Counted from the first letter of the stretch, positions 21,007-50,747 are shown. The stretch: 64,000 nucleotides of DNA from Nanobdellota archaeon (GCA_038045705.1 JBBSXO010000006.1:44506-108505); one strand, 5' to 3'. Made by a program: numbers and translations. The notes: generated from the sequence alone by a model not told the origin.

Positions 21007-21078
21007 GCTCGTCTAGTATATCGGTTAGTACATGGCCCTGTCGCGGCCAAGAGCCGGGTTCGATTCCCGGGACGGGCG
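21007..21078 (+). tRNA. tRNA-Asp (anticodon GTC)
   Basis: Hand-folded. Acceptor GCTCGTC/GACGGGC with discriminator G. D stem GTAT/GTAC. Anticodon stem TGGCC/GGCCA with loop CTGTCGC. T arm CCGGG-TTCGATT-CCCGG. Length 72 nt. Confidence 0.8.
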
Positions 21079-21079
21079 T
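21067..21079 (+). repeat. attL core: 13-bp direct repeat CCGGGACGGGCGT (3' end of tRNA-Asp)
   Basis: Exact 13-mer repeated at 50735-50747. A GC-rich 13-mer in ~30% GC DNA is unlikely to recur by chance. Confidence 0.6.
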
Positions 21080-21161
21080 TACCCCATCTTGCGATTTTAA
21101 TGAGATGGAATATACAAGTTTTATACAAGCCGTTTAAAAAAATGGTTTGAGGTAAAACAAC

Positions 21162-22334
21162 GTGAAACTTGATCCGTATAAACATAAAGAAAGATACATA
21201 GCTTGGAAGAATAAAATAGGTTCGGTTATTCCAGATATTACTATTCAAAATTCCCAGATAATTTTACAATATCTAAACGATATGGAAAGGGGTTTAAATG
21301 TCTCCATATTAAGCCAAAAAGGTCCGAGAAGTTATATTCGCCTTAATTCTTTAAGAGAAAAAATTATAGGATATGCAAAAAAGTTTAATGAATTATATAA
21401 TTTAGAAACAATTACAGATATCTCTGAAGACCAGTTACTTAATTTCTTTGCAGATATGAGAGATGGAGTTATTAAAAGAAAAGATGGTAAGGAGTATCAA
21501 TCTGTGGATACTTCTGCGCGTATATTCAAAGCATTCTGGCATTGGCATCAAAAAGTAAGCAGAAAAAAAGGGATTGAGATAAAAGATATTACCTTAGATC
21601 TAGATACAAAAGCAAAGAAACCTGATTGGGTTTACCTTACTGAAAAAGAGGTCAGGGTATTATGCGATAATGCTAAACCAGACTACAAGGCACTTATAAT
21701 GTTTCTTTTTGATACTGGAATTAGATCTCCTACAGAACTAATGAATGTTAAATTATCTGATTTATTTAATGATTGTAAAGAAGTTAATATTCGCGAAGAA
21801 ACGAGTAAAACATTTGGGAGAAGAGTAAAATTAATGCTATGCTCCGATGCTATACGGGATTATATTGAAAGAAATGGGCTAAAAACCGATGATTATTTAT
21901 TTCCTATAACGCCTGCAAGAGTTAATGAATACTTGAAGAGACTTGCTAAAAGAATTTTTGGAGAAAAAATAACCCCTGCAGGTGCAAAATATTCTGAAAT
22001 TACAATGTATGATTTTAGGCACATAGCATGTTGCTATTGGTTACCACGATATAAGTCAGAATCAGCCCTCAAATATAGATTTGGATGGAGAGATAGTGAG
22101 AAAATCCATTATTATTCAGAATTATTGGGTATGAGTGATACTATCTCTGAAGAAGACATGCTTTTAGATGTTACAAAGACTGAGATTGAAAAGAGTCTAA
22201 AAAAATCAGATCAAGAAAAAGAAATACTAAGTGACAGAGTAAGATCGCTAGAAAAAGAAATATCTGAGATGAAGAAAATATCTTTAGAACTTATAAGAGT
22301 CTCAACACCTAAGAATCAATATTTACTATCTTGA
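21162..22334 (+). CDS. int: tyrosine recombinase / integrase (divergent)
   Basis: Box I DTGIRSPTELMNV (TGLRxxEL-like). Box II YDFRHIACCYWL (LRH). C-terminal ...KIHYYSELLG carries the candidate catalytic Tyr. Lies directly 3' of tRNA-Asp. About 65% identical to the paralog at 50910. Confidence 0.7.
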   Translation: MKLDPYKHKERYIAWKNKIGSVIPDITIQNSQIILQYLNDMERGLNVSILSQKGPRSYIRLNSLREKIIGYAKKFNELYNLETITDISEDQLLNFFADMRDGVIKRKDGKEYQSVDTSARIFKAFWHWHQKVSRKKGIEIKDITLDLDTKAKKPDWVYLTEKEVRVLCDNAKPDYKALIMFLFDTGIRSPTELMNVKLSDLFNDCKEVNIREETSKTFGRRVKLMLCSDAIRDYIERNGLKTDDYLFPITPARVNEYLKRLAKRIFGEKITPAGAKYSEITMYDFRHIACCYWLPRYKSESALKYRFGWRDSEKIHYYSELLGMSDTISEEDMLLDVTKTEIEKSLKKSDQEKEILSDRVRSLEKEISEMKKISLELIRVSTPKNQYLLS

Positions 22335-22536
22335 CTTTTTGTTTTGTATTAAGAATAGTATCAATTTTTTTATCCATTTCTAAAATAGTTAATTCTATTT
22401 TATTTAATTGAGGTATCTCTTTTATCTTCCTCCTACAAATTTCTGAGACAGATACTTTATTTTCTTCAGCAATTTTCTTCAATTTATCCAGCAAATCAGT
22501 TTCAAGGTATAAATGAAGTTGAGAATTCTTTTTCAT
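22309..22536 (-). CDS. ribbon-helix-helix (CopG/Arc-like) DNA-binding protein
   Basis: LHLYLETDLLDKLKKIAEENKVSVSEICRRKI fits the beta-strand plus two-helix RHH pattern. Length 75 aa. Confidence 0.4.
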   Translation of the reverse strand: MKKNSQLHLYLETDLLDKLKKIAEENKVSVSEICRRKIKEIPQLNKIELTILEMDKKIDTILNTKQKVKIVNIDS

Positions 22537-22604
22537 TAGAATGTTTATCTATCTTTTTCTTTTCAAGATAAGCAATGAGATATTTCATCTTTAGAATAAT
22601 CTCT

Positions 22605-23180
22605 TCAGTGGTTAGTTCTTCCTCTAGAGTCATTATTAAATTTCTTGGTCTCATTGCCCCAGCAGTCCCAACCGCTAAAAGTTTCTCTTGCAAATAATTC
22701 TATTCTAGGTAAATCTCCAAGTAATTCTACAATATTATTTCTTATTTGATCTGGTTTTCTACTATGCTCTCTTAATGGAGAAAGAACAACTTGTCTAACT
22801 CTATTAGATTTTCTGATTAATTTTCCTTTTAATCCTAATAAACATATTTCTGTATTTGCTCGAGTCCAATTACCAAGACCCATAAATGGAAGCCCATCAC
22901 GTTTATTGGTTTTAACCCAAGTAAATGCTACTGTAACATATCTAAAACCCCATTTCTTCAAAGTTTCAATACATTCAGATAAAATTGGGTAAGTTGCCCA
23001 TAAGAAAAGAGCACAGTTTTCATCAGTGATCTGTTGAATTGGGAATTTCTGAATATCTTTAATTGGAACACAAGGATACTTTTTTGTCGCATTTGTTGTA
23101 CTGTATTTCCAGGGAGGATCTGCATAGATAATATTGTATTTTTTATTAATATCTAACTTCCATAAAAAATCTTTTTTCAT
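22605..23180 (-). CDS. orphan N6-adenine DNA methyltransferase, MT-A70 family
   Basis: YNIIYADPPWKY catalytic DPPW motif. Length 191 aa. No cognate endonuclease adjacent. Confidence 0.7.
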   Translation of the reverse strand: MKKDFLWKLDINKKYNIIYADPPWKYSTTNATKKYPCVPIKDIQKFPIQQITDENCALFLWATYPILSECIETLKKWGFRYVTVAFTWVKTNKRDGLPFMGLGNWTRANTEICLLGLKGKLIRKSNRVRQVVLSPLREHSRKPDQIRNNIVELLGDLPRIELFARETFSGWDCWGNETKKFNNDSRGRTNH

Positions 23181-23826: not shown

Positions 23827-24228
23827 ATGAAAACTAAATTAACTAAAGCAGTAGGTACTCTTGCAATAGTATTTATGATTCTATTTTTGCTGTTGCAAGA
23901 GGCAACTGCCTGCCCATCGCGTTTGAGATGCTCTAATTTTACTAATATGGATAAAAGAAATGATTGCAACTATATTTGGTCTCAAACATCAGGTGCTGAA
24001 AGACAAGAGGCAGTATGTATTTTATGGGACCAAGAGTATGGATTTCCTGGATACAACCATTCCGTTTATCCTAATGCGGAATCCAATTTTACGTTTTCTC
24101 ATAAAGAAATAGAAACAAGTAGATTTATTTTGTTTTTCAAAATAATTATATTTCTGTTATTTAATTATATCTTGTTTTCCATTCTAACTAAGACTTCATT
24201 CGTTAGAAGATGCCTTCCTGCGGGTTAG
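23827..24228 (+). CDS. secreted Cys-containing protein with C-terminal membrane anchor
   Basis: N-terminal TM/signal, six Cys in the ectodomain, C-terminal hydrophobic helix. Confidence 0.3.
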   Translation: MKTKLTKAVGTLAIVFMILFLLLQEATACPSRLRCSNFTNMDKRNDCNYIWSQTSGAERQEAVCILWDQEYGFPGYNHSVYPNAESNFTFSHKEIETSRFILFFKIIIFLLFNYILFSILTKTSFVRRCLPAG

Positions 24229-25019
24229 TTAATCTTGGAGCTTGTCTCCCAGAGATGTTTTTTAATTTTATTTTTAATTTAATTAATGCTCCTGTTCAAC
24301 CCTTCTTACAAGTAGTTCTTAATTTGCTCTCTGCAGAAGCTCATTTTTCTATCTTCCTTAGTTTATGGGTAATCATTGTTTATATGTTATCAATGTTTTA
24401 CGCATTGCTTATCGTTGGAGTGGGTTTTAGTTTCCTTATCTCTGGCTATGACTTTGAGAAAAGAGAACAGACAAAGGAATGGTTGAGAAACATAATAATT
24501 ATGATAATCTTAATCCAATCCTCATTCTTTATCTACGGGTTAATTATGGATTTAGCTTCCACGATGACTTCTGCAGTTTTAAGTATTGTAAGCCCTAATT
24601 TCTTCAGTTTACAAGTTAGTAGCAGTCTTGGTTTGGGTTTAGCAATAACTTTACTCTTTGTTTATGTAATTACTTTAATTGTTACCATAATTGTCTTAAC
24701 TCTAAGATATGCAATAGTTGCAATAGGAGTAGTTTTATTGCCTATTGGAATTTTCTTCTACTTTCTTTCACCGCTAAGATCTTTTGGTTCATTAATCTTA
24801 AACATATTAGGAATGGCTATATTTATCACATTTTTTGATGCACTTTTACTCATAGGATTTTCTTCATTAATGAATGTTGAAATATTTGATCAGTTTCAAA
24901 TTGTAATTTTAATAACTGCATTTTTGCTAATTGACATCTTAATGGTTGTTCTGTTATTTTTCGCAATAACTAAAGCTGCATTTGGAATTTATGATAAATT
25001 TAGCAGGTGGAAGAAATAA
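24210..25019 (+). CDS. polytopic membrane protein (VirB6/TrbL-like candidate)
   Basis: 269 aa with about 6-7 TM helices. Lies in an operon with the pilin-like gene and the VirB4-like ATPase. Confidence 0.3.
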   Translation: MPSCGLVNLGACLPEMFFNFIFNLINAPVQPFLQVVLNLLSAEAHFSIFLSLWVIIVYMLSMFYALLIVGVGFSFLISGYDFEKREQTKEWLRNIIIMIILIQSSFFIYGLIMDLASTMTSAVLSIVSPNFFSLQVSSSLGLGLAITLLFVYVITLIVTIIVLTLRYAIVAIGVVLLPIGIFFYFLSPLRSFGSLILNILGMAIFITFFDALLLIGFSSLMNVEIFDQFQIVILITAFLLIDILMVVLLFFAITKAAFGIYDKFSRWKK

Positions 25020-25777
25020 TGGCTTATGAAATACCTCAACAACTAGAATACAAAGAGAAAATAATGTTTGGGTTAAATTTTAAGCAATTAGCTTATCTTT
25101 TTATTTTTGCACCAATTCTATTTGTTATTTTTTTTAAGACTGCCTGGCATAATGCAATAAAGATATTTTTTATGTCAATTTTTGGAGGTTTAGCTATAGG
25201 GTTTATCTTTCTTGATTTAGATAAACATCTTCAAAATTGGTTTTACTGGTATAAATCAAAGAAGTTAGAGTTAGATCATAAATTAGCCTTATTCATACCA
25301 ATAAAAGAAGTAAAAGATAGTTTGGTTATAACTAGGGATAATAGGAAACTAGCAATTATCAAGATTACTCCTATTAATTTCTCAATTAAACATGAAGAGT
25401 CTAAGAATGCAATATCAATAGCATTTCAGAAATTTCTCAATGGTTTAGATTTTCCTATACAGATTATAATGAATACTGAACACCTTGATCTACGAGATTA
25501 TTTTGCAGAAGTTGAAAGAAAGATAAAAGACTCCAAACAATTTAGATATTTGTTTGAAGGTTACAAGAGACATCTAGAGTCAATAACTAAAGAAAAAGAT
25601 GTGATGAATAGGGTTTTTTATCTAGTTCTTACAGAAAGAACTGATATTAATATACAATTACAGATTTGTCAGACAAAATTATCTAATATTGGTTTAAAGA
25701 GTTTGAGACTAAAAGATAATGAATTAAAAGAATTGCTTAGAAGATTTTTCTTAGCAAGGAGAAATCATGCTAAGTAA
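25007..25777 (+). CDS. membrane protein with two N-terminal TM helices (VirB3/VirB8-like candidate)
   Basis: Two N-terminal TMs, then a soluble domain. Immediately upstream of, and overlapping, the VirB4-like ATPase gene. Confidence 0.3.
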   Translation: MEEIMAYEIPQQLEYKEKIMFGLNFKQLAYLFIFAPILFVIFFKTAWHNAIKIFFMSIFGGLAIGFIFLDLDKHLQNWFYWYKSKKLELDHKLALFIPIKEVKDSLVITRDNRKLAIIKITPINFSIKHEESKNAISIAFQKFLNGLDFPIQIIMNTEHLDLRDYFAEVERKIKDSKQFRYLFEGYKRHLESITKEKDVMNRVFYLVLTERTDINIQLQICQTKLSNIGLKSLRLKDNELKELLRRFFLARRNHAK

Positions 25778-28076
25778 AAAAGAAAGACCTAAAGAAAATA
25801 CGGAATTTTTACCTTTAAAGATAGAAAACACCCCCAGTTATCTTAAAATAACAGACGGAATAAAAGAACCAATCTTTAGTAGAACAATTTATGCTCATGG
25901 ATATCCTAGAAGTGTAGAAACTGGATTTTTGGACAAAATAATTAGCACAATGGGTAACTTTGATCTTTCTATGCACATTGAACCTTTTGATATAGAAACA
26001 ATGATGATCTTTCTAAACAAAGAACTTCAAAAACAAGGCTCTGACCTCTATACAGCTAAGGCAAAAAACATTCTTAGCCCGAGTCTTGAGATAAAGTACA
26101 AAGACACAAAAGCAGTCTTAGAAAATCTCCAAAAAGGTAAGGATAAATTGTTTAACGTAAGTCTTTACATAAATTGTAGAGCTAAATCTAAAGAAGATCT
26201 GGATCTTTTAACTAAATTAATACAAGCCGAACTTAACTCGCTACTGATAATCCCTAAAGTACCAAATTTTAGGATGGCTCAGGGTTTCCAGTCATCTTCT
26301 CCTTTAGCCATGAATAAACTTAAGCAAATAAGAAGTGTGCCTACTGAAGCATTATCTGCATTCTTTCCGTTTACTTCTTCATTTCTTCAAGCAGATAAAA
26401 CAGGAGTATGGTTAGGGCAAAATAAGAATAATATTCCCATAATAAAGGATATTTTCAATCTAAGTAACCCAAATGGTTTGTGTTTAGCTAGTTCGGGATC
26501 TGGTAAAAGCTATATGGCTAAACTCCTTATTTCACGTTATTTGCTTAATGGAACTAATGTAATGATAATTGACCCGCAAGGTGAGTACAAAGCTCTTGTA
26601 AAGCGATTTAATGGCCAATTAATCGATTTAAGCACGCACTCTGAGACAATAATTAATCCTTTAGATTTGATGGGTCATGACTATCCCGAAAAGCGTTTAG
26701 CTTTAATCGATTTGATGCATCTAATGCTTGGAGATCTTAGCGATCCACAAAAAGCTATTCTAGAAAAGGCAATAACAACATCTTATGAAGAAAGAGGAAT
26801 TTATATGAATAAAGTAGTTTCTTGGAGCAGAAAGCCTCCAATCATTGAAGATGTTCTAAATGTATTGAAGAAAGATGAAAAGAAAGCTACTCAAATAGAA
26901 AAGACTACAATAAGAAGCCTCATAAATCGTCTAGATGGTTATGTAAATGGAGTATTTTCTTTTCTTAATCAGGAAACTAAGATTAACTTTGATAATCAAT
27001 TTGTATGTTTTGATATAGGAAATCTGCCAAAACAAATCAAACCCCTAATGATGTTTATGGTTTTAGATTATATTTACATGAAAATGAAGAAAGACTTGAA
27101 TAGAAAACTCTTGGTTATCGATGAAGCTTGGGCACTTCTAAGGCAAACTCATGAAGCATCTTATGTATTTGAGATAGTAAAAACATGTCGTAAGTTCAAT
27201 CTAGCTTTATTTTTGATTAATCAAGAAGTTGAAGGTATGCTTGATTCAGAAGCGGGTAAATCTGTGTTAGCAAATAGTTCTTACACTCTCTTAATGCGTC
27301 AAAAGCCAGCCGTAATAAGAAATATTCAGAAAACATTTTTTCTAAGTGACTCAGAAGTCAACCATTTACTTACGGCTGGCGTGGGAGAAGGAATTTTGGT
27401 AATGGAGGATGATCATTCTGAAATAAAAATCATAGCTTCTCCTGAAGAACATAATATTATAACTACGAAGCCGGATGAGTTATTAACCAATCAAAAGAAA
27501 GTAAGTGAAAAAGAGCGTCTTCAGCTATTACAAGAACAATATGATTTACGGAAAGAAAAAAGAGACGAAAGACAAAAAATAGAAATAAAGATAGACAAAG
27601 ATGTAGGATGTGTTAAACTAAAAGACATATTAAAAGATGAAGTAAACTACCTCAAAAATTTAGGGTATAAGATTTACAGAAGTAAGAGCATCCTAAGCAA
27701 TAAAACAGAAAGTTATTTGATAGAACAAAAGAAAACAGAAAGCCCGCAACATATTTTTATGGTAAAAGATATTTCAGACTATTTGAAAAAGTTTACAGAT
27801 AAGGTTAGAATATATGAAACTGTGCAACCAGATATAGTTTTCGAGATAAATGAAAAGAAATATGCTATTGAAGTGGAAACAGGTAGTTTATTAAAATCAA
27901 ATAAAAAAGCATTGAAAGATAAAATAGAATTACTAAATAAAAAATATAAAGATAGATGGTTTTTTGTCGTAACTAATAGAAATATTGCATCAAAATATTC
28001 AGAATTAGGTAAAACTTATGATAAAAGATATATTAATACATTATTAAAACGCTTAATTGTAGAAAATAGCCAGTGA
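25767..28076 (+). CDS. VirB4/TrbE-like conjugative transfer ATPase with C-terminal PD-(D/E)xK nuclease-like extension
   Basis: Walker A LASSGSGKSY. Walker B LLVIDEAWALL about 205 aa later. VirB4-type LFLINQ...SYTLLMRQ motif. A C-terminal ~200 aa carries PDIVFEINEKKYAIEVETGS (D...ExE/K pattern). Confidence 0.55.
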   Translation: MLSKKERPKENTEFLPLKIENTPSYLKITDGIKEPIFSRTIYAHGYPRSVETGFLDKIISTMGNFDLSMHIEPFDIETMMIFLNKELQKQGSDLYTAKAKNILSPSLEIKYKDTKAVLENLQKGKDKLFNVSLYINCRAKSKEDLDLLTKLIQAELNSLLIIPKVPNFRMAQGFQSSSPLAMNKLKQIRSVPTEALSAFFPFTSSFLQADKTGVWLGQNKNNIPIIKDIFNLSNPNGLCLASSGSGKSYMAKLLISRYLLNGTNVMIIDPQGEYKALVKRFNGQLIDLSTHSETIINPLDLMGHDYPEKRLALIDLMHLMLGDLSDPQKAILEKAITTSYEERGIYMNKVVSWSRKPPIIEDVLNVLKKDEKKATQIEKTTIRSLINRLDGYVNGVFSFLNQETKINFDNQFVCFDIGNLPKQIKPLMMFMVLDYIYMKMKKDLNRKLLVIDEAWALLRQTHEASYVFEIVKTCRKFNLALFLINQEVEGMLDSEAGKSVLANSSYTLLMRQKPAVIRNIQKTFFLSDSEVNHLLTAGVGEGILVMEDDHSEIKIIASPEEHNIITTKPDELLTNQKKVSEKERLQLLQEQYDLRKEKRDERQKIEIKIDKDVGCVKLKDILKDEVNYLKNLGYKIYRSKSILSNKTESYLIEQKKTESPQHIFMVKDISDYLKKFTDKVRIYETVQPDIVFEINEKKYAIEVETGSLLKSNKKALKDKIELLNKKYKDRWFFVVTNRNIASKYSELGKTYDKRYINTLLKRLIVENSQ

Positions 28077-28191: not shown

Positions 28192-29760
28192 TTAAATTAC
28201 AGTAAATTCAAAAGCATCAGAAATAGAAACTACATTACCATTAGAGTCTAAAGTAACAAATGATGTATAAAAGGTAGAATTGCTTAGAGAAGGAATATTA
28301 GGTATTGCTAAGGTAACTTTAGATTGATTGATTCTCAATCTTCCAATAGAATTATATAAACCAATACTTTGGGGATTAGTTAAAGATGTTTGTAATAAAG
28401 GGGTGTTGTCTAAAGGAGTTATTCTTCCATCAGGCAGTGTAACTCCTTGGGAAATATTTGTAGACATTCCTAAAACATAATTTGCTTTAAGGTCGTAAGA
28501 TTCCTGTAATAAGAAGTTAACGCTTGATCCAACTCTTGGACTTCCAAGCATAACAATATTAGAAGGATTAAGAGATCTCTGGTATTTTACTCTTGCAGTT
28601 CTATATTGACCTTCATGCCATACTATATGTATATTTCCTTGTCTATCTGAAGCAAATTTTGGCGAATAAATTTGTCCTGCTCCCATAATAGTTGGACCAA
28701 TAATAATATTTCCAAGAGAATCTAATTGGCTAAATACTCTGCCTTGTCCAAATATACCTATACGCCCAAGAGAGTTAACTACGATTCCATCATTTCCAAC
28801 ATTTGGTAAAACTAATTTCTTATTTATTAAAAATGTACCATTGCTGTTTATTTTAGATAAATAGATACCAGAAGCATTATTATAATCAGAATTCCAAGAA
28901 AAGATAACATTATTTTGTTTATCGATTGCAATTGCTGGATAATCAGAGCCACCCATACCAATATCTAATTGAGAACCATTTATTAGTACATTTCCGAACT
29001 GATCTATGTAAGAATACTTAACATGAGCAACCCTGCTAGTAGAATTAGCAACAAACTCTTCCATCCACATCAAATAAGAAAAACCATTATTATCTGTAGC
29101 TAGCTTAATAACTAAAGGTTCGAAAATGCCTGCATTATAGACAGAATATATTGGAACTAAAAGATTACCTTGATTGTCGAACTTTCCATAGTAAACATCA
29201 TGATCTCCGCGCCAAGCGACATTTATGTTTCCGAGATTATCAACAGATAACTGCGGGTCTCCAGTTCCACTTCCAGGCAATAAAACTCCATTTACTGCAA
29301 TAGTACCATTAGCATAAAGCCGTGTATATCTAGTACCATGAAGAGTACTTCCAATCAAATCATACATCCATACAATATGAATATTATCAAATTTATCCAC
29401 AGCAATTGAAGAGAAGAATCCATAAGTGCTATTAAAATTGGTTAATTGTTGGTTACTAATAATTGTATTTCCAAATTTATCTAATTTGGTATAAAATACT
29501 TCTCCGATGATATTTGACAATTTTTGCATCCAAATAATATGCACGTTCCCTTGAGAATCTGTAGCTATAGATGGGTCTGCTGCAGTTAAAGTCAAATTAA
29601 GTAGAGAAATTAGAGATTCATTACTCCAATGTATTTGGGGTTCAATAGCTGAAGCTGGGGAAAGCAGAGGATAAGATGTAAAAAATCCTATTGCAACTAA
29701 AATAAAAATTAATGCTACCAGATTCTTATTTTTCTTCATAAAACTCCAGAAATTAATCAT
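28192..29760 (-). CDS. secreted beta-propeller-like repeat protein
   Basis: Signal/anchor, then at least six roughly 45-50-aa repeats with core D-x-x-G-N-[IV]-H-[IV]-x-W (DSQGNVHIIW, DKFDNIHIVW, DNLGNINVAW, DKQNNVIFSW, DRQGNIHIVW). Confidence 0.4.
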   Translation of the reverse strand: MINFWSFMKKNKNLVALIFILVAIGFFTSYPLLSPASAIEPQIHWSNESLISLLNLTLTAADPSIATDSQGNVHIIWMQKLSNIIGEVFYTKLDKFGNTIISNQQLTNFNSTYGFFSSIAVDKFDNIHIVWMYDLIGSTLHGTRYTRLYANGTIAVNGVLLPGSGTGDPQLSVDNLGNINVAWRGDHDVYYGKFDNQGNLLVPIYSVYNAGIFEPLVIKLATDNNGFSYLMWMEEFVANSTSRVAHVKYSYIDQFGNVLINGSQLDIGMGGSDYPAIAIDKQNNVIFSWNSDYNNASGIYLSKINSNGTFLINKKLVLPNVGNDGIVVNSLGRIGIFGQGRVFSQLDSLGNIIIGPTIMGAGQIYSPKFASDRQGNIHIVWHEGQYRTARVKYQRSLNPSNIVMLGSPRVGSSVNFLLQESYDLKANYVLGMSTNISQGVTLPDGRITPLDNTPLLQTSLTNPQSIGLYNSIGRLRINQSKVTLAIPNIPSLSNSTFYTSFVTLDSNGNVVSISDAFEFTVI

Positions 29761-29778
29761 ATTTAAAGCCTATTATCT

Positions 29779-30150
29779 TCAAGGTATTGTATAAAATCCT
29801 CTACCGTCTACATCTAAATCGCCAAAGGGATCAGGGTGGAAAGCTATTGTTCTTGTTTCCATTTCTGTGTTAATATCATCTCTTATTGCTACATCTAAGT
29901 CTGTAATTCGATTGACCGTTCCTCTAAATTGTCTTTCACACTTTCCCGCTTCTAAAATTGCTATGTAATTAGTATACCCATCTTCTGAATATATTTTATA
30001 AGCATAATCAACATCAATTATTCCATTAGCTTGGCATCTTGGGTTTATAGTTATATTAGCGCTTGGTTGTGCTTGAACTGCAATTATTGTCACTCCTATA
30101 AATAATATCATTCCTAAAAAATATAGTATTTGATTTTTCATAATGGACAA
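29779..30150 (-). CDS. small secreted protein
   Basis: Signal peptide MSIMKNQILYFLGMILFIGVTIIAVQA. Length 123 aa. Confidence 0.3.
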   Translation of the reverse strand: MSIMKNQILYFLGMILFIGVTIIAVQAQPSANITINPRCQANGIIDVDYAYKIYSEDGYTNYIAILEAGKCERQFRGTVNRITDLDVAIRDDINTEMETRTIAFHPDPFGDLDVDGRGFYTIP

Positions 30151-31826
30151 ACTCCTGCCGTGTTATCTATCCAAGACAGACCCCCGTTGTTGCAATAGAC
30201 TAACGCTTGATTAGTAGTAGGAGTTTTATTTAAAGGTACCCATGCAGTTGAGTTCCAATAAATTACACTTCGATTCACTCTAGTCCATTGGCTTTCAACA
30301 GTTAGAGATTTATTTAAGCAATTTCCACCAGTTACACAAATATCTTTTGTATTGTTTAGTGGATTCCTCAATGCAATTTTATAACTATCTAAGTATGTAG
30401 AAGCTACATTATCTTGAGCATTTAATTCTAATGTTTGTTGCGCAACATTATTTGTGAATACCCAATTACCTGTAAAAGAAGCATTACCTAAAGATAGTTG
30501 AGAATTTGCAGTATCAGTAGGTAATATGTATAATCCGTTTGCTATTCCTCCTACATTAAGAGTTCCATTTCCACCAGTCATTTTTATCAGCGGAATTCCA
30601 AATATTGATACAAGCGTTGTTGTTACATCAAATGTAGTTGCAGAAAGTGCTACACCAGCTTGTGAATCATCTAATCTTAATTTTTTTCCAAATATTCTAT
30701 CTAAAACTGTTAAATCTTGTGTAGAGAAGTTTAATCCAACGTAAGAAGAAGCATTTACAACTCCGTTAACTATAACTGATCCATTAACATGAAATTTTTC
30801 CTGAGGGTTAACAGTTCCAATGCCAACTTTTCCATCGCTTTTCCATGACATTATTCCGTTTAATTGACTTCCACTACGATTGTTGGATACATCTAGTTTC
30901 AAAAGACCAACCCCAGGATGATTAACAAATGCATAAGTCAATGGATTAAGCTCATTTATAGCTCCAGACAATAGTAAAGTTGCAGCACCATCTGCTATCT
31001 GTGAACCAGTAAATCCAGTATGGCCTCCCATTATATTAAGAGTTCCCCTTCCATTAGTGCCGTTTCCAGCAATTAATATCTGAGAACGAATATCAGTTCC
31101 CTCGTTAGTTGTAACCTTTATGCCCCCAGTAGCATTTCCATTCCATATAGTTAATATATGATCTGGAGTTGTAAGACCAATTCCTATTTTTGAACCACTT
31201 TGAAAAATAGCAGAACTATTCAAACCAGTAGTAGAATTCCATCTAGAAATATATCCAGAAATCCCTTGACCAGTTAAAGTTCCCGTAGAAGGAAGATTTG
31301 TTAATTGTGATCCGTCACCAATAAAGTATGGAGAGGTAACTCTTTCGGAAAAGTATCCTGATTTAGCGCTAACATTGTTAGTAATATTTATGTTCTTTCT
31401 ATTCTCTGAGAAAAGAAGGTTGTCGCTTTCATTAATTGCCCAAATAATATTACCTTTTATTACTCTTATAACTAAATCTCCCGTCTGAGCAATGGAAGAG
31501 TAATGCCCTGCAGCTAAAGCAAGCCCTAAGTTAGCAAGAATGCTCGTCTCGTTCTTAAAACCAAGAGCAGGAGAATTTGATTGTGCTTGCGCACCAGCTA
31601 TTGTAAGACCCTCACCAGGTCTTTGAACATTTATGCTATGATAATTTGAAGTCATATTTTCAGCTGTGAAGTTTCCGTTGCGGAAAATAATATTTCCAGC
31701 AGAAACAGATGTAATGAAGAAAGACAGAATAAGAAGAGAAATAATAGATTTTAATCCATTCCCCTTCATATACGGAAGTGTCTTCTCATATTTATATATG
31801 TTGTGTTTAAAATATGACATTTTCAT
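30138..31826 (-). CDS. secreted G/N/T-rich fibre-like protein
   Basis: N-terminal TM anchor. Low-complexity Gly/Asn/Thr/Ser-rich beta-rich sequence of 562 aa. Confidence 0.35.
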   Translation of the reverse strand: MKMSYFKHNIYKYEKTLPYMKGNGLKSIISLLILSFFITSVSAGNIIFRNGNFTAENMTSNYHSINVQRPGEGLTIAGAQAQSNSPALGFKNETSILANLGLALAAGHYSSIAQTGDLVIRVIKGNIIWAINESDNLLFSENRKNINITNNVSAKSGYFSERVTSPYFIGDGSQLTNLPSTGTLTGQGISGYISRWNSTTGLNSSAIFQSGSKIGIGLTTPDHILTIWNGNATGGIKVTTNEGTDIRSQILIAGNGTNGRGTLNIMGGHTGFTGSQIADGAATLLLSGAINELNPLTYAFVNHPGVGLLKLDVSNNRSGSQLNGIMSWKSDGKVGIGTVNPQEKFHVNGSVIVNGVVNASSYVGLNFSTQDLTVLDRIFGKKLRLDDSQAGVALSATTFDVTTTLVSIFGIPLIKMTGGNGTLNVGGIANGLYILPTDTANSQLSLGNASFTGNWVFTNNVAQQTLELNAQDNVASTYLDSYKIALRNPLNNTKDICVTGGNCLNKSLTVESQWTRVNRSVIYWNSTAWVPLNKTPTTNQALVYCNNGGLSWIDNTAGVCPL

Positions 31827-35303: not shown

Positions 35304-35306
35304 TTA

Positions 35307-40305: not shown

Positions 40306-40898
40306 TTTAAATCTCCTAAGTGTTCATTATAATGTAATTTACTAATAAATAACTTTTTGTTCTTATCTAACTCTACAACAGTCACAGAAGCGTTAGGGCT
40401 ACCTTTCTCAATAATCTCAGAATTATCTTTATTTTTAACCAACAGCATTTTTAACAAAGAAACTTTTGTTCCACCATGAGTCATAATTAAAACTGTTTTG
40501 TCTTTCCATTTTTTACTATTCTCTGTTAAAAATGTCTCTGCCCTTTTATCAACATCTTCAGGAGTTTCTCCGCCAGGAGGAGCTTTGTTAGGATTATTCT
40601 TCCCCCATTCCTTTAACTCACCAGTAGGTTTACCTTCAAAAATACCCTTACCTCTTTCTCTCAAAAGATGAGAGTAATTAGCTTCCATTTTAATTATCTT
40701 TAATAATGGAGCAATAGATTCTCTACATCTTCCCAAATCTGAACAATAAACTAAATCTATTTTTTCATTTTTCAAATAATTAGCTAATTTTTCGACTTGC
40801 TTTAATCCAATCTCACTAAGTTTACCTTGATTTTGACCTTGAGTTATTCCTTCTTTATTTTCAACGGTTTCACCATGTCTTACAATAATTAATCTCAT
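40302..40898 (-). CDS. histidine phosphatase (phosphoglycerate-mutase-like) family protein
   Basis: N-terminal MRLIIVRHGETVEN (RHGE motif) and a later MTHGG. Confidence 0.7.
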   Translation of the reverse strand: MRLIIVRHGETVENKEGITQGQNQGKLSEIGLKQVEKLANYLKNEKIDLVYCSDLGRCRESIAPLLKIIKMEANYSHLLRERGKGIFEGKPTGELKEWGKNNPNKAPPGGETPEDVDKRAETFLTENSKKWKDKTVLIMTHGGTKVSLLKMLLVKNKDNSEIIEKGSPNASVTVVELDKNKKLFISKLHYNEHLGDLK

Positions 40899-45313: not shown

Positions 45314-45628
45314 ATGAGGAACACACTACAAAAAGAGAAAAGTAAAGAAAATCTTTTATCTGAGATGCTCTCATATCTCGAACCAAAGGAAACTATCCAA
45401 ATTAATGGGAAACTTTCTTATAAGGAAAGTTTAGGTTCTTGGAATGTAATTCAATTGCAAAAAGAGATTATTGATTTATTTCCTCAACTTAGAGAGAAAA
45501 GAAGTAATTTTGGTTATACTATGTTCTATAATCGCTCGTTTAAGGAATCGAGAAAAATAATTGATGAGCTAGAAAAAAACGGGGTTGTTCCTATTTTTCT
45601 GTTGTTAGGTAAGGTAAAAGAAAGATAG
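45314..45628 (+). CDS. conserved small protein, copy 1 (paralog at 61145-61459)
   Basis: 104 aa, about 80% identical to the inverted copy 16 kb away (LSYLEPKETI.I.GKLSYKE.LGSWNVIQLQKEIID.FPQLREKR..FGYTMFYNRS.KES.KI..ELEK.GVVPIFLLLGK). Confidence 0.4.
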   Translation: MRNTLQKEKSKENLLSEMLSYLEPKETIQINGKLSYKESLGSWNVIQLQKEIIDLFPQLREKRSNFGYTMFYNRSFKESRKIIDELEKNGVVPIFLLLGKVKER

Positions 45629-45675: not shown

Positions 45676-46644
45676 ATGAAAAAAGAACCAATCTCAAAGA
45701 GACAGCATTATGTTAATCAAGCTTACTTAAAAAATTTTAGAATAGAAAGTACGGAAGATAGTTTATTTATGTATGATAAAGAGAAAATGTCTATTGCTAG
45801 GGTAAAAACTGCAAATGTAGCCAGCGAGAATTTCTTTTATGATAGGACAGAAGAGCGCATTATAGAGAAGACTTTAGCAGAATTTGAAGGTAAATGTAAT
45901 GTTATCTTAAAAAAGGTCATCGAAAAGGAAGATTTAGACCAATTAATTAGTGAAGAAAAGGAGCTTTTAGCGACGTTTTTAGCAGTTCAATTTTTAAGAT
46001 CAAAAGAATTAAGAATTGATTATAAACAGATTGCAGAGGCTGTTTTAGAAAGGGTTGCTGAGAAAATAGTTCCAGATTTTAAGAAAGGAGATATTAAAGT
46101 CGTAGAAGATTCTTTATCTGGACTTCATGTACATACGATTTTTAAAGAATCTGGACATTTTGCAAAATTATTTCTTGATAAATCATGGAAATTATGTATC
46201 AATAATTCCTCTATTCCTTTTTGGACTTCCGATAATCCTTGTGCAATACATAACGATCTTGAGCCAGAACCATTCAAAAGCAATCTAGGAATTGAATGTA
46301 AGGGCTTTCAGTTGCATTTTCCATTATCTTCAAGGTTACTCTTAATAATTATTGACAAAAACATTAAGGTAATTGATTTAAGTAATGCAAAAGAAATAAA
46401 ATATCCAAAAAAGAGAAGTTTTTACAGGAATATAGATAAGAAACTAGACGTTCCTTTATTTACTTTAATGCCTCCAAAGGAATTTGTTGGAGGGGACAGA
46501 GTTACTTTTGAGAATAATTTGCAGGTAATATCTGCGACAAGATTTATCTTTTCTTCAAATGAAGATTTTTCTCTTGCTGACAAATATTTAAAAGAACAAC
46601 CGATACATAGAAATGCAAATAGAGGAAGATTTAAAGTAATGTAA
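45676..46644 (+). CDS. DUF4238 family protein
   Basis: N-terminal KRQHYVNQAYLKNF matches the DUF4238 signature (H-x-h-P/N-Q-x-Y-L-K-x-F). Confidence 0.45.
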   Translation: MKKEPISKRQHYVNQAYLKNFRIESTEDSLFMYDKEKMSIARVKTANVASENFFYDRTEERIIEKTLAEFEGKCNVILKKVIEKEDLDQLISEEKELLATFLAVQFLRSKELRIDYKQIAEAVLERVAEKIVPDFKKGDIKVVEDSLSGLHVHTIFKESGHFAKLFLDKSWKLCINNSSIPFWTSDNPCAIHNDLEPEPFKSNLGIECKGFQLHFPLSSRLLLIIIDKNIKVIDLSNAKEIKYPKKRSFYRNIDKKLDVPLFTLMPPKEFVGGDRVTFENNLQVISATRFIFSSNEDFSLADKYLKEQPIHRNANRGRFKVM

Positions 46645-46700
46645 TTGACTATCAATTTAATATCTAAAATTTTAAAATCTCCTAATGATTTCGGAGAATT

Positions 46701-47270
46701 ATGAAAAAAGAATGCGTTGAACATTACAATAAGATTAAGATAAGTAATATCAGCATACTTAGTTCTAACAAAAAGTTAAGCGACTATGAGAGAAATTTAA
46801 AACTAGAATATGCCCGAGAAGAGCAATACGAGTCTGACTCATTTAATCTTAAACTTGCAGATAGTAGATGTAACTTGGGTGGTTGGCGTCTCTGGTTTAT
46901 GTGTCAAGGGTGCGAAAAGAAAGTTGGAACCCTATTCTACAAATATGACCCTCAAAATCTAAGATGTAGAAACTGTTTAAATCTTACTTATGAGGCAAGA
47001 CAGAATAAAAGAAAAGAGGCATTTCATCTTATTGGTAATGCAATAAGGCTTAAACAAAAATATGATTTAATAGGAGAAAGGCTGTTAAGGAAAGGAATAC
47101 ATGCAAAGACTCGCCTCAGACTTTGGTCAGAAAAAACAATATTAGGGGAAGAACTAATAGAAGTTCTAGCCTTACAAAAAGAAGTCTTATCCAATAATTC
47201 TGTTAAATATGGAAAAAGAATGCAAGAACTAATAGAAAATAAAAAATTAGATTTTACAACAAGACCATAA
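46701..47270 (+). CDS. zinc-ribbon protein, hypothetical
   Basis: CQGCEKKVGTLFYKYDPQNLRCRNC in a 189-aa basic protein. Confidence 0.3.
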   Translation: MKKECVEHYNKIKISNISILSSNKKLSDYERNLKLEYAREEQYESDSFNLKLADSRCNLGGWRLWFMCQGCEKKVGTLFYKYDPQNLRCRNCLNLTYEARQNKRKEAFHLIGNAIRLKQKYDLIGERLLRKGIHAKTRLRLWSEKTILGEELIEVLALQKEVLSNNSVKYGKRMQELIENKKLDFTTRP

Positions 47271-47499
47271 TTACAATTTTCTATTACCTTCTTTATCTAA
47301 AATTATTCTTTCCTTTTACATATTTTATAAGAACTAAGAAAATTCCTAAAATAACAGACACTACTCCTGAAGAAGAGTTGCTTAGTGGAAATGAAGGATA
47401 AAGAGCCTTTGCAATTAATAGAGCCATGTAGATTACCACTGCTGAAACAAAGAAGACTCTAAAAGCTCCTATAATATCCCCTACAACATTATCAGACCA

Positions 47500-48096
47500 G
47501 TGTTTAGCCATAGAAATTATGATTATCCTAAATATTTAAATTCTTTCAACCTTTATAAAAATATGGGAAATAGAGAGTATCAAGTATGGGATAAAAAAGG
47601 AGAAGGAGAAGAGTCTTGGATGCAATTTAGAAGATTTGCAGTATCTTATAGAAAGGCTTTTCAAACATGTATTAAAAAAGAAGTTGAAGATGCATCAAAC
47701 GGCTTAATATTTGATGATGAAGATATTTTTCCATCTTTGTTATTATTCAATCATTATGTAGAACTCTCTTTGAAAGCCTTACTTGAAAAATCTGGAAGCA
47801 ACTTTAAAAGTCATATTTTAAAAGATTTATTAGAAGAGGTTGAAAAGAACTATCCTGACTTTAAACTCAGCAACTTACCAAGAAAATTAATAACTGATAT
47901 TGATTTAATTAACCCAGCTAGACCTTTATTAGACCACGAAGGTTTTAGGTATCCTTTAGATAATAAAAGAAATAAGATCTGGGTTACTGAAAGAAATAAT
48001 CATGCTTTTATTGTTCTTGGTGGAGTTCATACTTCTTCAATAAATCTAATAAATGAGATAGAAGCTTACTTTAAAGATAAGATAATAAAAGCTTAG
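47500..48096 (+). CDS. hypothetical protein
   Basis: 198-aa ORF, no motif. Confidence 0.25.
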   Translation: MFSHRNYDYPKYLNSFNLYKNMGNREYQVWDKKGEGEESWMQFRRFAVSYRKAFQTCIKKEVEDASNGLIFDDEDIFPSLLLFNHYVELSLKALLEKSGSNFKSHILKDLLEEVEKNYPDFKLSNLPRKLITDIDLINPARPLLDHEGFRYPLDNKRNKIWVTERNNHAFIVLGGVHTSSINLINEIEAYFKDKIIKA

Positions 48097-48113
48097 TATT
48101 CTAATAATTTAAT

Positions 48114-48542
48114 ATGACTACAAAAAACACAATCCGTAATTCAGATAGATCAAAGTTAAATAAACATAAGAAGACCATTTTAGAGCATTATTTATCTAGC
48201 TTTAATTCAGAACATTTTTGCAATAGGTGTAAGAAAGTCTTGCCCTTGCCAGAACTTGAGATACATCATCTTAGCTATGAAACTGAAAGTTATCGCTATG
48301 GAGAAATAGTTTGCAGACCTTGTCATGAGGCTACCGAAAAAGGTATTATTTCTTCTTTTCATGAGCAAAAAAACACAGGTATTCAGAATGTCTTTGTATT
48401 TCAGAAATATTTATCTGGAATGGCAATTATCTCTAGATTAGAAGACGGAAGAATCTTGCAGAGGATGAGATTAAGACTTAGAGCTGGGGAAGAAGTAAAA
48501 CCATTAGTTTTAATGGGGATTTTTACAGATAGAAAGATATAA
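48114..48542 (+). CDS. HNH endonuclease domain protein
   Basis: CNRCKKVLP...EIHHLSYETESYRYGEIVCRPCHEA (Cys4 plus HH...N/H pattern of the HNH fold). Confidence 0.5.
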   Translation: MTTKNTIRNSDRSKLNKHKKTILEHYLSSFNSEHFCNRCKKVLPLPELEIHHLSYETESYRYGEIVCRPCHEATEKGIISSFHEQKNTGIQNVFVFQKYLSGMAIISRLEDGRILQRMRLRLRAGEEVKPLVLMGIFTDRKI

Positions 48543-48566
48543 ATTAGGTTTCTTGATAGAGTTTTC

Positions 48567-48872
48567 ATGGAAATTGTTAAACAAATATTGGCAACAGTTC
48601 TATTTTTAGCAATGGCTTATGTTGCCTTTGATGTAAGCTTATTATTTTTTATTTTCTTCATTTTAGGTGGAATATATTCTCTGATATTTCATGATGCTTG
48701 GGAAAGACCAGGGGTTCCAATTTTATGGTTTGCTGGAGGGCTTATTTGTAGAGTAGCTTTATCAGGAATATTGCTTCCAATCTTGAAATATGAAAATTTA
48801 ATAGATCTAGTTATAGGATTATTTGCTTTCGGAGTAGTTTATTTAATAGGTCACAGAGTTAGGAATGGATGA
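48567..48872 (+). CDS. small membrane protein
   Basis: 101 aa, three TM helices. Confidence 0.3.
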   Translation: MEIVKQILATVLFLAMAYVAFDVSLLFFIFFILGGIYSLIFHDAWERPGVPILWFAGGLICRVALSGILLPILKYENLIDLVIGLFAFGVVYLIGHRVRNG

Positions 48873-49457
48873 ATGATGCCTAAAACCTTTGAAAAACAAC
48901 AACTAACAATAAATTGGATTTTAGTAGGCATAGCTATAATTGGACTATATTTCACACACCTTCAAATTAATATAAATGATCAAAATACTAAGTTATATGA
49001 ACAGACTGTAAGACCAAATATAAAAATAAGTTCTTACAATCTTGACAGTAACCTTGAGGTTTATTATCGGAATAGAATTTCTGCTATAAATCTAGATAAT
49101 TCTTCTGGTACGGTTCTTAATTTTTTCATTACCAATATCGGAAAAATTGATGCTAAATGGGTTTCCATTATGATAAATAATTCATGGGCATCAAATATCC
49201 GTTTAAATTTTGATAACATATCTTCAGGAGAAACCGAATTTGGACAGATAATCATGACTACAAGAGAGTGCCAAGATTGGAACATATTTGGAAAATCTGA
49301 AGGAAAAAGTTTAGATTCTTGCAAAGCAAGTGAGAATAATATAAGTTTAGGAAAGGAAAATATAGAACTTAAAATAGAATGTATAAATTGCGACCCTCCA
49401 ACCCAATATCAAGATTTAGAAGTTTGCTTTGAAAGTATTAATAACAATATTTGCTAA
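48873..49457 (+). CDS. membrane-anchored secreted protein, hypothetical
   Basis: N-terminal TM, Asn-rich ectodomain with six Cys. Confidence 0.3.
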   Translation: MMPKTFEKQQLTINWILVGIAIIGLYFTHLQININDQNTKLYEQTVRPNIKISSYNLDSNLEVYYRNRISAINLDNSSGTVLNFFITNIGKIDAKWVSIMINNSWASNIRLNFDNISSGETEFGQIIMTTRECQDWNIFGKSEGKSLDSCKASENNISLGKENIELKIECINCDPPTQYQDLEVCFESINNNIC

Positions 49458-49568
49458 AATCAAAGGATTAGGTTTATACAAGTCGTTTAAAAAATATCAA
49501 AAATGCCACAAAACTAATAAATAAAATGAATGGACAAGACTTAATTACATCTAAATGTTAGAGAAAAT

Positions 49569-50600
49569 ATGCCTCAGAAAACTATGATCTATGAAATAAA
49601 AGAAATGAAACAACAAGAAAATAATAAATCTGTTAGTCATAAGTATAGACTTATAGGTGTAATTATAGGGGCAATTATTAGTGCTATATTTTTAGTTTCC
49701 ATCCTAATGAGTAATCCATTTAGTATCCAAAATCTTATGTTTGGAGCAATACCTTTTATTATTTGGATAATCTTAGGATTATATATTGGGCACTCTATAG
49801 AAAGAAAACATTATAGGACTTTGATGGTTTTCTCAATATTTTTTATTATTCCAATCATACTTAATCTTGCTGGTCCAGTAAATGAATTTATTTATCCTGA
49901 AAGCACTTTTAGTGAGAAGATTACTATAAGATTTGATTCTGTTAACTCAGACAATAAATCCTATGTTAATTATGATAATCCCCTTTTGGATAGTACTGCT
50001 GTTTGGAATTCAGTTTATAATGCAACAGTAATTAAAGATGGCTATGTCGATGGGGTTGGTGATAAAAAATACTTCTTAACCAAAGGTACTAAAATAACTC
50101 TAGAAAAGGGTGATGGAAATATTAGTAAAATTTATAATAATTACATTAAAACAGGCGTAGAGCCAAAATTGGCAGAGAATTATATCCAACAAAGCTATGG
50201 GAGTCGTACACCACCAATAATTGGAGAAAATTATGAAGTGATACTGTTTAGTGGGGATGGCAAATCATTTTCCTTCCAACATTATGTGGATGATAAAGGT
50301 CTAACTCTATCACAAGAGTATGGTAAAAAAACAGCCTTGTCTAATGGCTTATTTTCTCTTGTTATTCTATCAACTCCAATTTATGTTTTTACTTACGGCT
50401 TTTTTATATGGTATATGTTTTTAATAATGACTTATGGTTTAGGACTAATCTTTATTATTTTGGGGTTATTTATCACAAATTGGGCATCTAAAGATCACGT
50501 GGGAAATATAAGAAGAATTGATTTCTTAATAATTTTCTTACAATATCTAACTTGTTTGGGAACGATTATTACTTTAACGGGCATATTACCAACTTGGTAA
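49569..50600 (+). CDS. membrane protein, hypothetical
   Basis: N-terminal 3 TM and C-terminal 3 TM flanking a soluble domain. Last gene before the attR repeat. Confidence 0.3.
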   Translation: MPQKTMIYEIKEMKQQENNKSVSHKYRLIGVIIGAIISAIFLVSILMSNPFSIQNLMFGAIPFIIWIILGLYIGHSIERKHYRTLMVFSIFFIIPIILNLAGPVNEFIYPESTFSEKITIRFDSVNSDNKSYVNYDNPLLDSTAVWNSVYNATVIKDGYVDGVGDKKYFLTKGTKITLEKGDGNISKIYNNYIKTGVEPKLAENYIQQSYGSRTPPIIGENYEVILFSGDGKSFSFQHYVDDKGLTLSQEYGKKTALSNGLFSLVILSTPIYVFTYGFFIWYMFLIMTYGLGLIFIILGLFITNWASKDHVGNIRRIDFLIIFLQYLTCLGTIITLTGILPTW

Positions 50601-50734
50601 GACAGAGGCGACTTCTGACTTTTCTAATCAATCACTTTCATCTAGACAAAACTTATAAACTCTGCAAGTCTTTAGAATGTTGTATAAAACTTGTACATAA
50701 AACATTCCACTCTAATCGCAAAACGGGGAGTATG

Positions 50735-50747
50735 CCGGGACGGGCGT
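50735..50747 (+). repeat. attR core: 13-bp direct repeat CCGGGACGGGCGT
   Basis: Identical to tRNA-Asp positions 21067-21079. An imperfect inverted copy ACGCCCTGCCCGGGC lies at 50823-50837. Confidence 0.55.

Follow-up and report, generated by a model that had tools for sequence, protein, structure and literature searches.

A tRNA-Asp gene of a DPANN archaeon as the probable site of two integrative elements in tandem

Introduction

What is the 29.7-kb block of genes that lies between a transfer RNA (tRNA) gene for aspartate and an exact copy of that gene's 3' end, and why is the copy followed by a second integrase? The question is raised by a stretch of 64,000 nucleotides from a Nanobdellota archaeon (GCA_038045705.1, JBBSXO010000006.1:44506-108505), called the window throughout and numbered from its first letter. 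The host comes from Hainich groundwater and belongs to the Woesearchaeota/Nanoarchaeota group of DPANN. Exact protein matches trace the window to metagenomes from this groundwater, its ribosomal protein uS10 scores above the cutoff of the archaeal/eukaryotic model, and the nearest genomes bear the labels Woesearchaeota, Pacearchaeota or Nanoarchaeota. Members of DPANN are ultrasmall and have not been cultured, and their gene exchange is poorly known. Tandem tRNA-linked integrative elements are well established in bacteria and in other archaea; literature searches found no description of tRNA-integrating elements, or of islands resembling integrative and conjugative elements (ICEs), in DPANN.

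The analysis reported here indicates that the window very probably holds two mobile elements, E1 and E2, that use one integrase family, carry unrelated cargo and lie in tandem in tRNA-Asp(GTC), E1 having entered by integrase recombination. E1 occupies positions 21080-50747 (29,668 bp) and E2 begins at the repeat that ends E1. Contigs and loci used for comparison carry numbers beginning with L.

A precise insertion at tRNA-Asp

The features of the attachment (att) sites and of both elements' ends are as follows.

21007-21078, plus strand: tRNA-Asp(GTC), called by ARAGORN; integration target, intact after insertion
21067-21079, plus strand: attL core, a 13-bp identity block (CCGGGACGGGCGT) equal to the tRNA-Asp 3' end
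21080-21128, plus strand: E1 left arm (P'), TACCCCATCTTGCGATTTTAATGAG...ACAAGTTTTATACAA, inverted-repeat partner of the right arm
21162-22334, plus strand: int1, tyrosine integrase (Pfam PF00589, PHROG integrase), starting 82 bp after the core
50680-50734, plus strand: E1 right arm (P), TTGTATAAAACTTGT...AATCGCAAAACGGGGAGTATG, inverted-repeat partner of the left arm
50735-50747, plus strand: attR core of E1 and attL core of E2, an exact copy of CCGGGACGGGCGT
50748-50822, plus strand: E2 left end, consisting of an arm (AAGCCTATTGTGGCATTTTCTAGAGAC), a 21-bp spacer and an inverted arm (read by eye)
50823-50835, minus strand: site B, an inverted tRNA-Asp-like core (CCGGGCAGGGCGT, 11 of 13 positions matching) with inverted arms, 89 bp upstream of int2
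50925-52082, plus strand: int2, tyrosine integrase of E2, 62% identical to int1 and 97.7% identical to L076 at the nucleotide level
52317-61100, minus strand: E2 variable cargo, a type I restriction-modification (R-M) system with hsdM, a HEPN protein, hsdS, three unknown genes and hsdR (Pfam)
61145-63175, minus strand: E2 conserved distal block with p104b, a nucleoside deoxyribosyltransferase-like gene and a B12/radical-SAM protein gene (Pfam)

The initial annotation had placed a tRNA-Asp(GTC) at 21007-21078 and an exact 13-bp direct repeat of its 3' end at 50735-50747. ARAGORN agreed on the tRNA gene, which stands in identical synteny in the relatives L012-L016 and L076, and both copies of the repeat were found. 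In the window the 13-mer occurs exactly twice, on the plus strand at 21067-21079 and again at 50735-50747, compared with a chance expectation of 0.02 in dinucleotide-preserving shuffles with two mismatches permitted. The 13-mer begins 4 nt before the end of the T-stem, takes in the 3' acceptor strand and the discriminator and runs 1 nt past them, and sequence identity between the two copies ends exactly at its edges. The attL junction is covered by independent contigs from several samples (L001, L002 and L004), as is the attR junction (L005, L008 and L118-L121). Several assemblies break within the tRNA or at the start of int1, and contig 7 of one metagenome-assembled genome with exact protein matches to the window (GCA_964357645.1) starts inside tRNA-Asp and ends at window-equivalent 72,491.

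If an insertion took place at this repeat, there should be relatives whose tRNA-Asp runs straight into the DNA now found from 50748 onward, as the initial annotation had foreseen, and a contig of this kind was found by scanning metagenome contigs with the integrase alignment. This contig, L076, comes from a different Hainich well and has the same left-flank gene order as the window at 76-81% nucleotide identity. In L076 the tRNA-Asp core is joined directly to the equivalent of window 50735-52273 at 97.7% identity, and the counterpart of the attR core is part of the intact tRNA-Asp. L076 is the empty site for E1, with the junction exactly at the repeat. Because the tRNA-Asp core is joined there straight to 50748 onward, E1 is a precise insertion bounded by the 13-bp repeat.

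Imperfect terminal inverted repeats of about 50 bp, which the initial annotation had not mentioned, lie inside E1 beside both cores. The left end aligns locally to the reverse complement of the right end with a score of 37; shuffled ends gave 14.5 +/- 2.3 with a maximum of 27, and 0 of 2000 reached 37. Arm-like sequences also follow the tRNA or the core in many loci of the integrase family. When the right end, core and left end are joined, they form a near-palindromic, symmetric attP (...AATCGCAAAACGGGGAGTATG-CCGGGACGGGCGT-TACCCCATCTTGCGATTTT...), and the reconstructed attB reads ...GGTTCGATTC-CCGGGACGGGCGT-AAGCCTATTGTGGCATTTT.... A near-palindromic site would be consistent with the usual shape of an attP, in which integrase-binding half-sites flank the crossover region. 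Judged from this anatomy, E1 would have entered by tyrosine-integrase recombination between the attP of the element (right arm, 13-bp core, left arm) and the tRNA 3' end. The element would have supplied a replacement 3' end, leaving the tRNA intact at attL, and the displaced copy of the tRNA 3' end would mark attR. An inversion between attL and attR through the palindromic CCCGGG was rejected by reasoning alone: the hybrid cores that it predicts are not those seen.

E2 begins at the shared core and consists of int2, an exchangeable R-M slot and the conserved distal block. Its left end is 94% identical to that of L076 (5 differences in 88 bp), although intergenic DNA of the host barely aligns with that contig, and its distal block (61158-62767) matches L076 at 92.8% nucleotide identity. 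The variable slot of L076 instead holds an AlwI-type R-M system and a PD-(D/E)xK nuclease. Overall, two species that share 76-81% identity along their chromosomes share 93-98% in E2. Three left neighbours of E2 were seen: tRNA-Asp alone (L076), E1 (the window) and a 6.6-kb element of the type found in L015 (L119, 99.5% identical). E2 is therefore taken to be mobile, since its ends outmatch the chromosomes, its R-M cargo has been swapped and its left neighbours differ. The tandem integration at one tRNA that the initial annotation had proposed is thus upheld, with E2 as a separate mobile unit starting at the shared core.

Integrases and other occupants of the site

The open reading frame (ORF) at 21162-22334 is a tyrosine recombinase, as had been claimed for the gene following tRNA-Asp: int1 matched PF00589 (E 2e-9, 37.8 bits, cutoff 27.1) and the PHROG integrase (E 8e-18). 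Its candidate catalytic residues R188, K216/K223, R286, H287, W309 and Y317/Y318, with roles assigned by eye, are invariant in a 12-sequence alignment. The second integrase was also present as described, with two corrections. Its identity to int1 is 62% over 384 amino acids (aa) rather than about 65%, and its likely start is not 50910, 163 bp after the repeat, but the ATG at 50925 used in the gene calls, 177 bp after it; a TTG at 50910 is also open.

A search with int1 returned 2343 homologues at E<=1e-5, many of them 60-76% identical, and no match among 50,697 phage records. Eighty metagenome loci of the family were fetched, and 69 had enough upstream sequence to be judged. A same-strand tRNA lay 75-330 bp upstream of the integrase in 31 of these 69; it was tRNA-Asp(GTC) in 18 cases and a Glu, Ser, Gln, Arg or Gly tRNA in the remainder. 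Many of the other loci carried partial tRNA 3' halves or arm-core-arm sites at the tRNA position, as would be expected for second positions in arrays. One locus, L034, has the integrase, MT-A70, VirB2, p133, VirB6, PrgI and VirB4 genes in the order of E1 at 58-79% identity, and is located at tRNA-Ser(GCT). This shared order at another tRNA indicates that the integrase and the block of type IV secretion system (T4SS) genes have moved together between tRNA sites.

The relatives that share synteny with the window carry differing DNA after tRNA-Asp. Host genes lie within 0.6 kb of the tRNA in L014, 3.2 kb of extra DNA follows it in L016, and L012 has an E1-like left arm without an integrase. L015, from a co-occurring species, has a 6.6-kb integrase-less element at tRNA-Asp (13715-20379) with genes for a type III R-M system and a copy of the same 13-mer at either end. 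The right ends of E1 and of the L015 element are 97% identical over their last 68 bp, and about 110 bp align in all. The L015 element could be mobilised in trans by an integrase of the int1 type. In a contig from H41 (L119, 1-112), the right end of an L015-type element is joined via the core to E2. The tRNA-Asp gene is a hot spot for this integrase family.

Two further differences between relatives were observed around this site. A Fic-family host gene stands to the right of the tRNA-Asp array in L015 (20380-20749) and is 83% identical to a gene at window 5135-5762; the window counterpart adjoins tRNA-Ser(GGA) and has the reverse relative orientation, with similar trailer sequences. This placement suggests that, in one of the lineages, an inversion or rearrangement took place between tRNA-linked sites. 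Directly upstream of tRNA-Asp, on the side away from the integration, the window has a 1.36-kb stretch (19603-20960) with a cupredoxin-like gene and a 202-aa ORF. None of the six syntenic relatives has this stretch, which is therefore a lineage-specific indel.

Gene content of the first element

Behind int1, E1 carries a T4SS-like gene set, followed by surface proteins and several metabolic genes.

22605-23180, minus strand: MT-A70 family DNA/RNA methyltransferase (Pfam PF05063, E 2e-32), syntenic in L034
23495-23824, plus strand: VirB2/TrbC-type T4SS pilin (Pfam T4SS_pilin PF18895, E 5e-13; TrbC, E 2e-8)
24210-25019, plus strand: polytopic membrane protein in the VirB6/TrbL position, assigned by position and predicted membrane topology
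25007-25777, plus strand: VirB3/PrgI-like protein (Pfam PrgI, 27.6 bits, cutoff 27)
25767-28076, plus strand: VirB4-like ATPase with a predicted C-terminal PD-(D/E)xK-like nuclease-fold domain (aa 600-769)
28192-38982: 10.8-kb cluster of large secreted or surface proteins of 522, 123, 562, 1016, 149, 556, 164, 307 and 148 aa
38966-45628: eight-gene cassette of NUDIX, p309, MoaA-like radical SAM, DUF2064, p224, CYTH, His-phosphatase and p104 (Pfam and NCBIfam)
45676-50600, plus strand: distal cargo of DUF4238 (Pfam, E 2e-39), a HEPN-like protein (weak match) and small or membrane proteins

A 133-aa protein (p133) is encoded between the pilin and the gene in the VirB6 position. The latter had a weak precomputed Pfam match (TrbL_3) on an identical gene; our own Pfam scan gave none. 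The best curated model for the VirB4-like protein was the NCBIfam CD1110 type (293 bits, below the cutoff of 325). Its best plasmid matches were CD1110-type VirB4 proteins of conjugative Firmicutes and Actinobacteria, which are monoderm, at 28-31% identity and over residues 16-580 only. VirB3/PrgI and VirB4 are separate, overlapping ORFs in the window and its closest relatives and one fusion of about 990 aa in most DPANN homologues, in which PF12666 and PF26593 occur together with VirB4 domains. More than 1,300 VirB4 homologues were found among the candidates scored, and the named ones all belong to Nanoarchaeota or Pacearchaeota.

Fold comparison suggests a PD-(D/E)xK nuclease-like fold for the C-terminal 170 aa of VirB4 (window 27564-28073). 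A PDB sequence search and Pfam returned nothing significant for this domain, and the fold comparison alone was informative. Every DPANN homologue sampled has this domain, and the plasmid VirB4 matches lack it. The domain may possibly substitute for a relaxase in DNA processing. Pfam, NCBIfam and PHROG scans of E1 ORFs of >=100 aa gave no match to a relaxase or VirD4, and no replication genes were detected in them. For the coupling ATPase (VirD4/TraG) and DNA-processing enzyme of an ICE, the modelled nuclease-fold domain of VirB4 is the only candidate. The mating-pore genes of an ICE (VirB4 with membrane and pilin parts) were found, with VirB4 below its curated cutoff and TrbL_3 weak. From the set typical of thaumarchaeal ICEs (a VirB4-VirD4 pair, TFIIB and a ParB-like protein), the E1 scans found VirB4 only.

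The proteins of the surface cluster have signal or transmembrane N-termini as judged by eye. They include a CehA/McbA metallohydrolase domain (84.7 bits, cutoff 80) and weak Big_9, cadherin, CARDB and peptidase-MA matches, and homologues at 35-53% identity follow VirB4 in L115. The span of the cassette holds two interposed genes at 39502-40898. From NUDIX to p104, it is 89-98% identical at the amino acid level to L113 12628-17891 from another species. The T4SS genes of E1 and L113 are 70-84% identical, and the host-flank proteins of the window are mostly 72-84% identical to those of L016, probably the same genome as L113. The higher identity of the cassette compared with both argues that it was recently exchanged horizontally and that E1 is a mosaic. 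The cassette may serve nucleotide or cofactor chemistry. PADLOC, run on ten cargo proteins, gave a single weak match (DUF4238-Pers, E 2e-7).

The last gene of the cassette has a paralogue in E2. The two p104 genes (45314-45628, plus strand, and 61145-61459, minus strand) are 76% identical and belong to an uncharacterised family of about 100 aa with 140 cluster representatives at E<=1e-3. Genes of this family were found with the integrase at 17 or more of the 80 metagenome loci, in many cases immediately downstream of it and in convergent orientation. The structure model of p104 was poor, with a predicted local distance difference test (pLDDT) value of 52. The protein is a candidate accessory or directionality factor.

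A diversity-generating retroelement lies just to the right of the window (L009 46-7438, window-equivalent 65,054-72,446). Its reverse transcriptase ORF (RVT_1) runs off the contig end, and every assembly breaks there, at about 72,491. The template repeat (L009 640-721) has variable repeats at the 3' ends of three genes (3347-3423, 5762-5844 and 7362-7438), and all 27 mismatches between template and variable repeats fall on template adenines.

Weighing the interpretations

Several observations weigh against two integrase-borne elements in tandem. Across 21079 and 50747, where the initial annotation had asked for a comparison of composition, GC content, GC skew and tetranucleotide distance show no step; only 28-35 kb, with the genes for large surface proteins, deviates. 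The lack of a step is uninformative rather than contradictory. A third copy of the 13-mer, for which the initial annotation had proposed a search beyond the window, did not turn up: with <=3 mismatches, the window and the 8.5 kb beyond it (to window-equivalent 72491) held no core other than the repeat pair and site B. The same search gave no right end or distal core for E2 up to 72,491, where all assemblies stop. E2 is therefore larger than 21.7 kb and its end may lie beyond that point; the missing end bounds its size and is no refutation. E2 would continue beyond 62.8 kb to an end that no assembly reaches. The fetched contigs contained neither an excised circle nor an attP junction; a second site in L015 resembles P-core-P', yet is chromosomal. 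The VirB4 and PrgI scores are at or below the curated cutoffs. Site B, which is not in the initial annotation and looks like an intact att site in inverted orientation, lies between the shared core and int2.

The remaining points against concern the cargo. The methyltransferase and T4SS cluster also stands beside thermosome, hydrolase and GGDEF genes in L113 (6753-12304) and L115 (6753-12325), and the T4SS genes of L113/L114 and L115/L116 are 64-84% identical to those of E1 at the amino acid level. In L113 the NUDIX-to-p104 cassette is likewise found in an integrase-less setting. No integrase, usable tRNA target or att-like arm was located within about 10 kb of the T4SS genes in L113-L116, and a search for att-like arms in L113 and L115 found none. 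The cargo is therefore not confined to integrase-bounded islands. Relatives with the same genes but without integrase or repeats had been named in the initial annotation as evidence against integration; L113-L116 partly answer to this for the T4SS and cargo, and the insertion of E1 at this tRNA is unaffected.

The integrase-less copies in L113-L116, together with the more than 1,300 VirB4 homologues, make the apparatus look lineage-wide, sometimes riding an integrase-bounded island and not private to E1. In E1 it would consist of VirB2, VirB6, VirB3 and VirB4 without relaxase or coupling protein, the VirB4 bearing its putative nuclease-fold domain, plus the surface proteins. Such an apparatus probably serves cell-cell contact or DNA exchange in the lineage generally, and conjugation dedicated to E1 is the less probable use. 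A similar contact or DNA-exchange role has been proposed for the system of Patescibacteria (PMC12102498).

The strongest competing view is that E1 is a self-transmissible ICE, whose own T4SS transfers the excised element between DPANN cells with the nuclease fused to VirB4 in place of a relaxase. The travel of integrase and T4SS together to different tRNAs (the window and L034), the retention of the nuclease-fold domain in all sampled homologues and the best plasmid matches to conjugative CD1110-family VirB4 proteins would all fit this view. So would the cassette beside the T4SS, with its 89-98% identity across species, and archaeal conjugative plasmids and ICEs also lack relaxases (PMC6563490). 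However, the TFIIB, ParB and replication genes that archaeal ICEs usually have (PMC6563490) are all missing from E1, as is VirD4. Elsewhere the same T4SS lies in a conserved chromosomal setting with no integrase, the abundance of VirB4 homologues in these archaea suggests a lineage-wide apparatus, and there is a parallel in Patescibacteria, where most genomes carry a T4SS and conjugation is doubted (PMC12102498). Self-transmission of E1 is thus conceivable but doubtful.

Site B raises a second alternative. From the shared core to int2, the order is an arm, the 21-bp spacer, an inverted arm, site B, a further arm, 65 bp and int2. E2 could be flipped, with site B as its attR, and integrated in a second, minus-strand tRNA beyond 72.5 kb, in which case 50748-50822 would be host DNA between two converging arrays. 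This layout predicts a minus-strand tRNA ending in ...CCCGGGCAGGGCG. Some 10 of the 69 loci of the family show a core in inverted orientation about 90 bp upstream of their integrase. L035 and L036 share the arm nearest the integrase but not the sequence on the far side, which indicates that inverted cores can be true junctions, with the attP core facing the other way. The failure to find a direct-repeat end for E2 also agrees with a flipped element. On the other hand, the window and L076 agree at 94% over the 75-bp stretch to the left of site B, a value near the 97.7% of E2 and unlike the 76-81% of the host. The locus L073 has the same layout (tRNA-Asp, about 75 bp, inverted core, integrase) with unrelated sequence and would need independently arisen convergent tRNA pairs, and no minus-strand tRNA was found up to 72,491. 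A head-on arrangement is for these reasons rather unlikely, and the conservation of the 75 bp between two species favours a tandem in which E2 carries site B internally.

Two other readings of site B were rejected. Its target is not taken to be tRNA-Ser, whose 3' end has 3 mismatches to the 13 positions of the site B core. Nor is it taken for a fragment of another tRNA: by eye, the likeness to the 3' end of tRNA-Asp extends over only about 20 nt and includes neither a T-loop nor other tRNA structure. Cores facing either way were observed across the family (L035, L036, L042, L050, L052, L062, L073, L087, L098, L110 and window 50748-50860). Units of about 75 bp with an arm-spacer-arm structure and a direct core occur in L042, L050 and L052; they look like miniature elements or deletion remnants.

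That E1 is an integrated provirus is very improbable. A tRNA-targeting integrase and many ORFs of unknown function are found in it, but Pfam and PHROGs revealed no capsid, portal, terminase or other viral hallmark, int1 has no counterpart in the phage records, and the recognisable genes are of T4SS, surface and metabolic types. A chance repeat or an assembly artefact is hardly credible: assemblies do break inside the tRNA or at the start of int1, but the expected number of chance matches is 0.02, independent contigs from several samples span both junctions, L076 holds the empty site, and the L015 element is a second case of the identical 13-mer bracketing an element at tRNA-Asp.

Discussion

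The arrangement in tandem of E1 and E2 resembles known systems in several respects. The tRNA-integrated elements and putative ICEs of Thaumarchaeota, as well as pNOB8-type integrative elements in other archaea, also keep their integrase intact after integration, use the tRNA 3' end with short direct repeats, have empty sites in sister genomes, re-use one site in tandem and encode VirB4, VirB6 and VirB3 homologues without a relaxase (Krupovic et al. 2019, PMC6563490). In contrast to these elements, E1 has a DPANN host and lacks VirD4/TraG, TFIIB and ParB genes. At 29.7 kb it is about half their median size of 64 kb, and it has a VirB2/TrbC-type pilin (PF18895) and a predicted nuclease-fold domain at the C-terminus of VirB4 (compare PMC6563490).

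The T4SS of Patescibacteria, the bacterial candidate phyla radiation (CPR), is derived from the mating-pair formation type MPF-FATA and comprises the same set, namely a VirB2-like pilin (PF18895 or PF04956), PrgI/VirB3, VirB4 and VirB6 (PMC12102498); the two are likened here by gene set. Both lack a relaxase, and the bacterial system is likewise widespread in an ultrasmall, probably episymbiotic lineage (PMC12102498). The monoderm CD1110 type as best curated model for the VirB4 of E1 is counted as a further likeness (PMC12102498). The E1 apparatus differs in being archaeal, in lying inside an integrase-bounded island at a tRNA and in its additional putative nuclease-fold domain (PMC12102498). 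The VirB3-VirB4 fusion seen in most DPANN homologues is not reported in Patescibacteria (PMC12102498).

The Ced and Ted importers of Crenarchaeota are also reduced machines built around VirB4; they have a VirB2-like pilin and need no relaxase to move DNA (cited in PMC12102498). However, the CedD model matched only weakly (45 bits, cutoff 600), so that no ATPase of the CedD/TedC type was recognised, and Ced and Ted are chromosomal and not linked to integrases. E2 for its part resembles the tRNA-linked genomic and defence islands of bacteria, with a tRNA-proximal integrase, conserved ends, a slot that swaps type I and type II R-M systems, and tandem arrays. It differs from them in its archaeal integrase family, with no match in the phage collection, and in its extra inverted att-like site. 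The unusual details of the locus are the nuclease-fused VirB4, as modelled, the flipped cores and a T4SS that is both resident and mobile.

A broader scenario can be drawn from these details, although we regard it as unlikely. E1 would be a self-transmissible DPANN island with a T4SS free of relaxase and coupling protein, the VirB4 nuclease processing the DNA. An integrase family whose cores face either way would build tRNA-linked arrays, leave behind miniature elements of about 75 bp, and shuttle defence and host-interaction cassettes between co-resident DPANN species.

The locus offers a precisely bounded island with its empty site, together with a large integrase family that prefers tRNA-Asp. 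The reconstructed attP and attB and int1 form a compact recombination system that could be developed into a genetic tool, of which this lineage has none so far. The T4SS-like machine is carried on a mobile island in some genomes and is chromosomal in others. The ends of E2 and the NUDIX-to-p104 cassette are direct evidence of recent transfer between co-occurring species.

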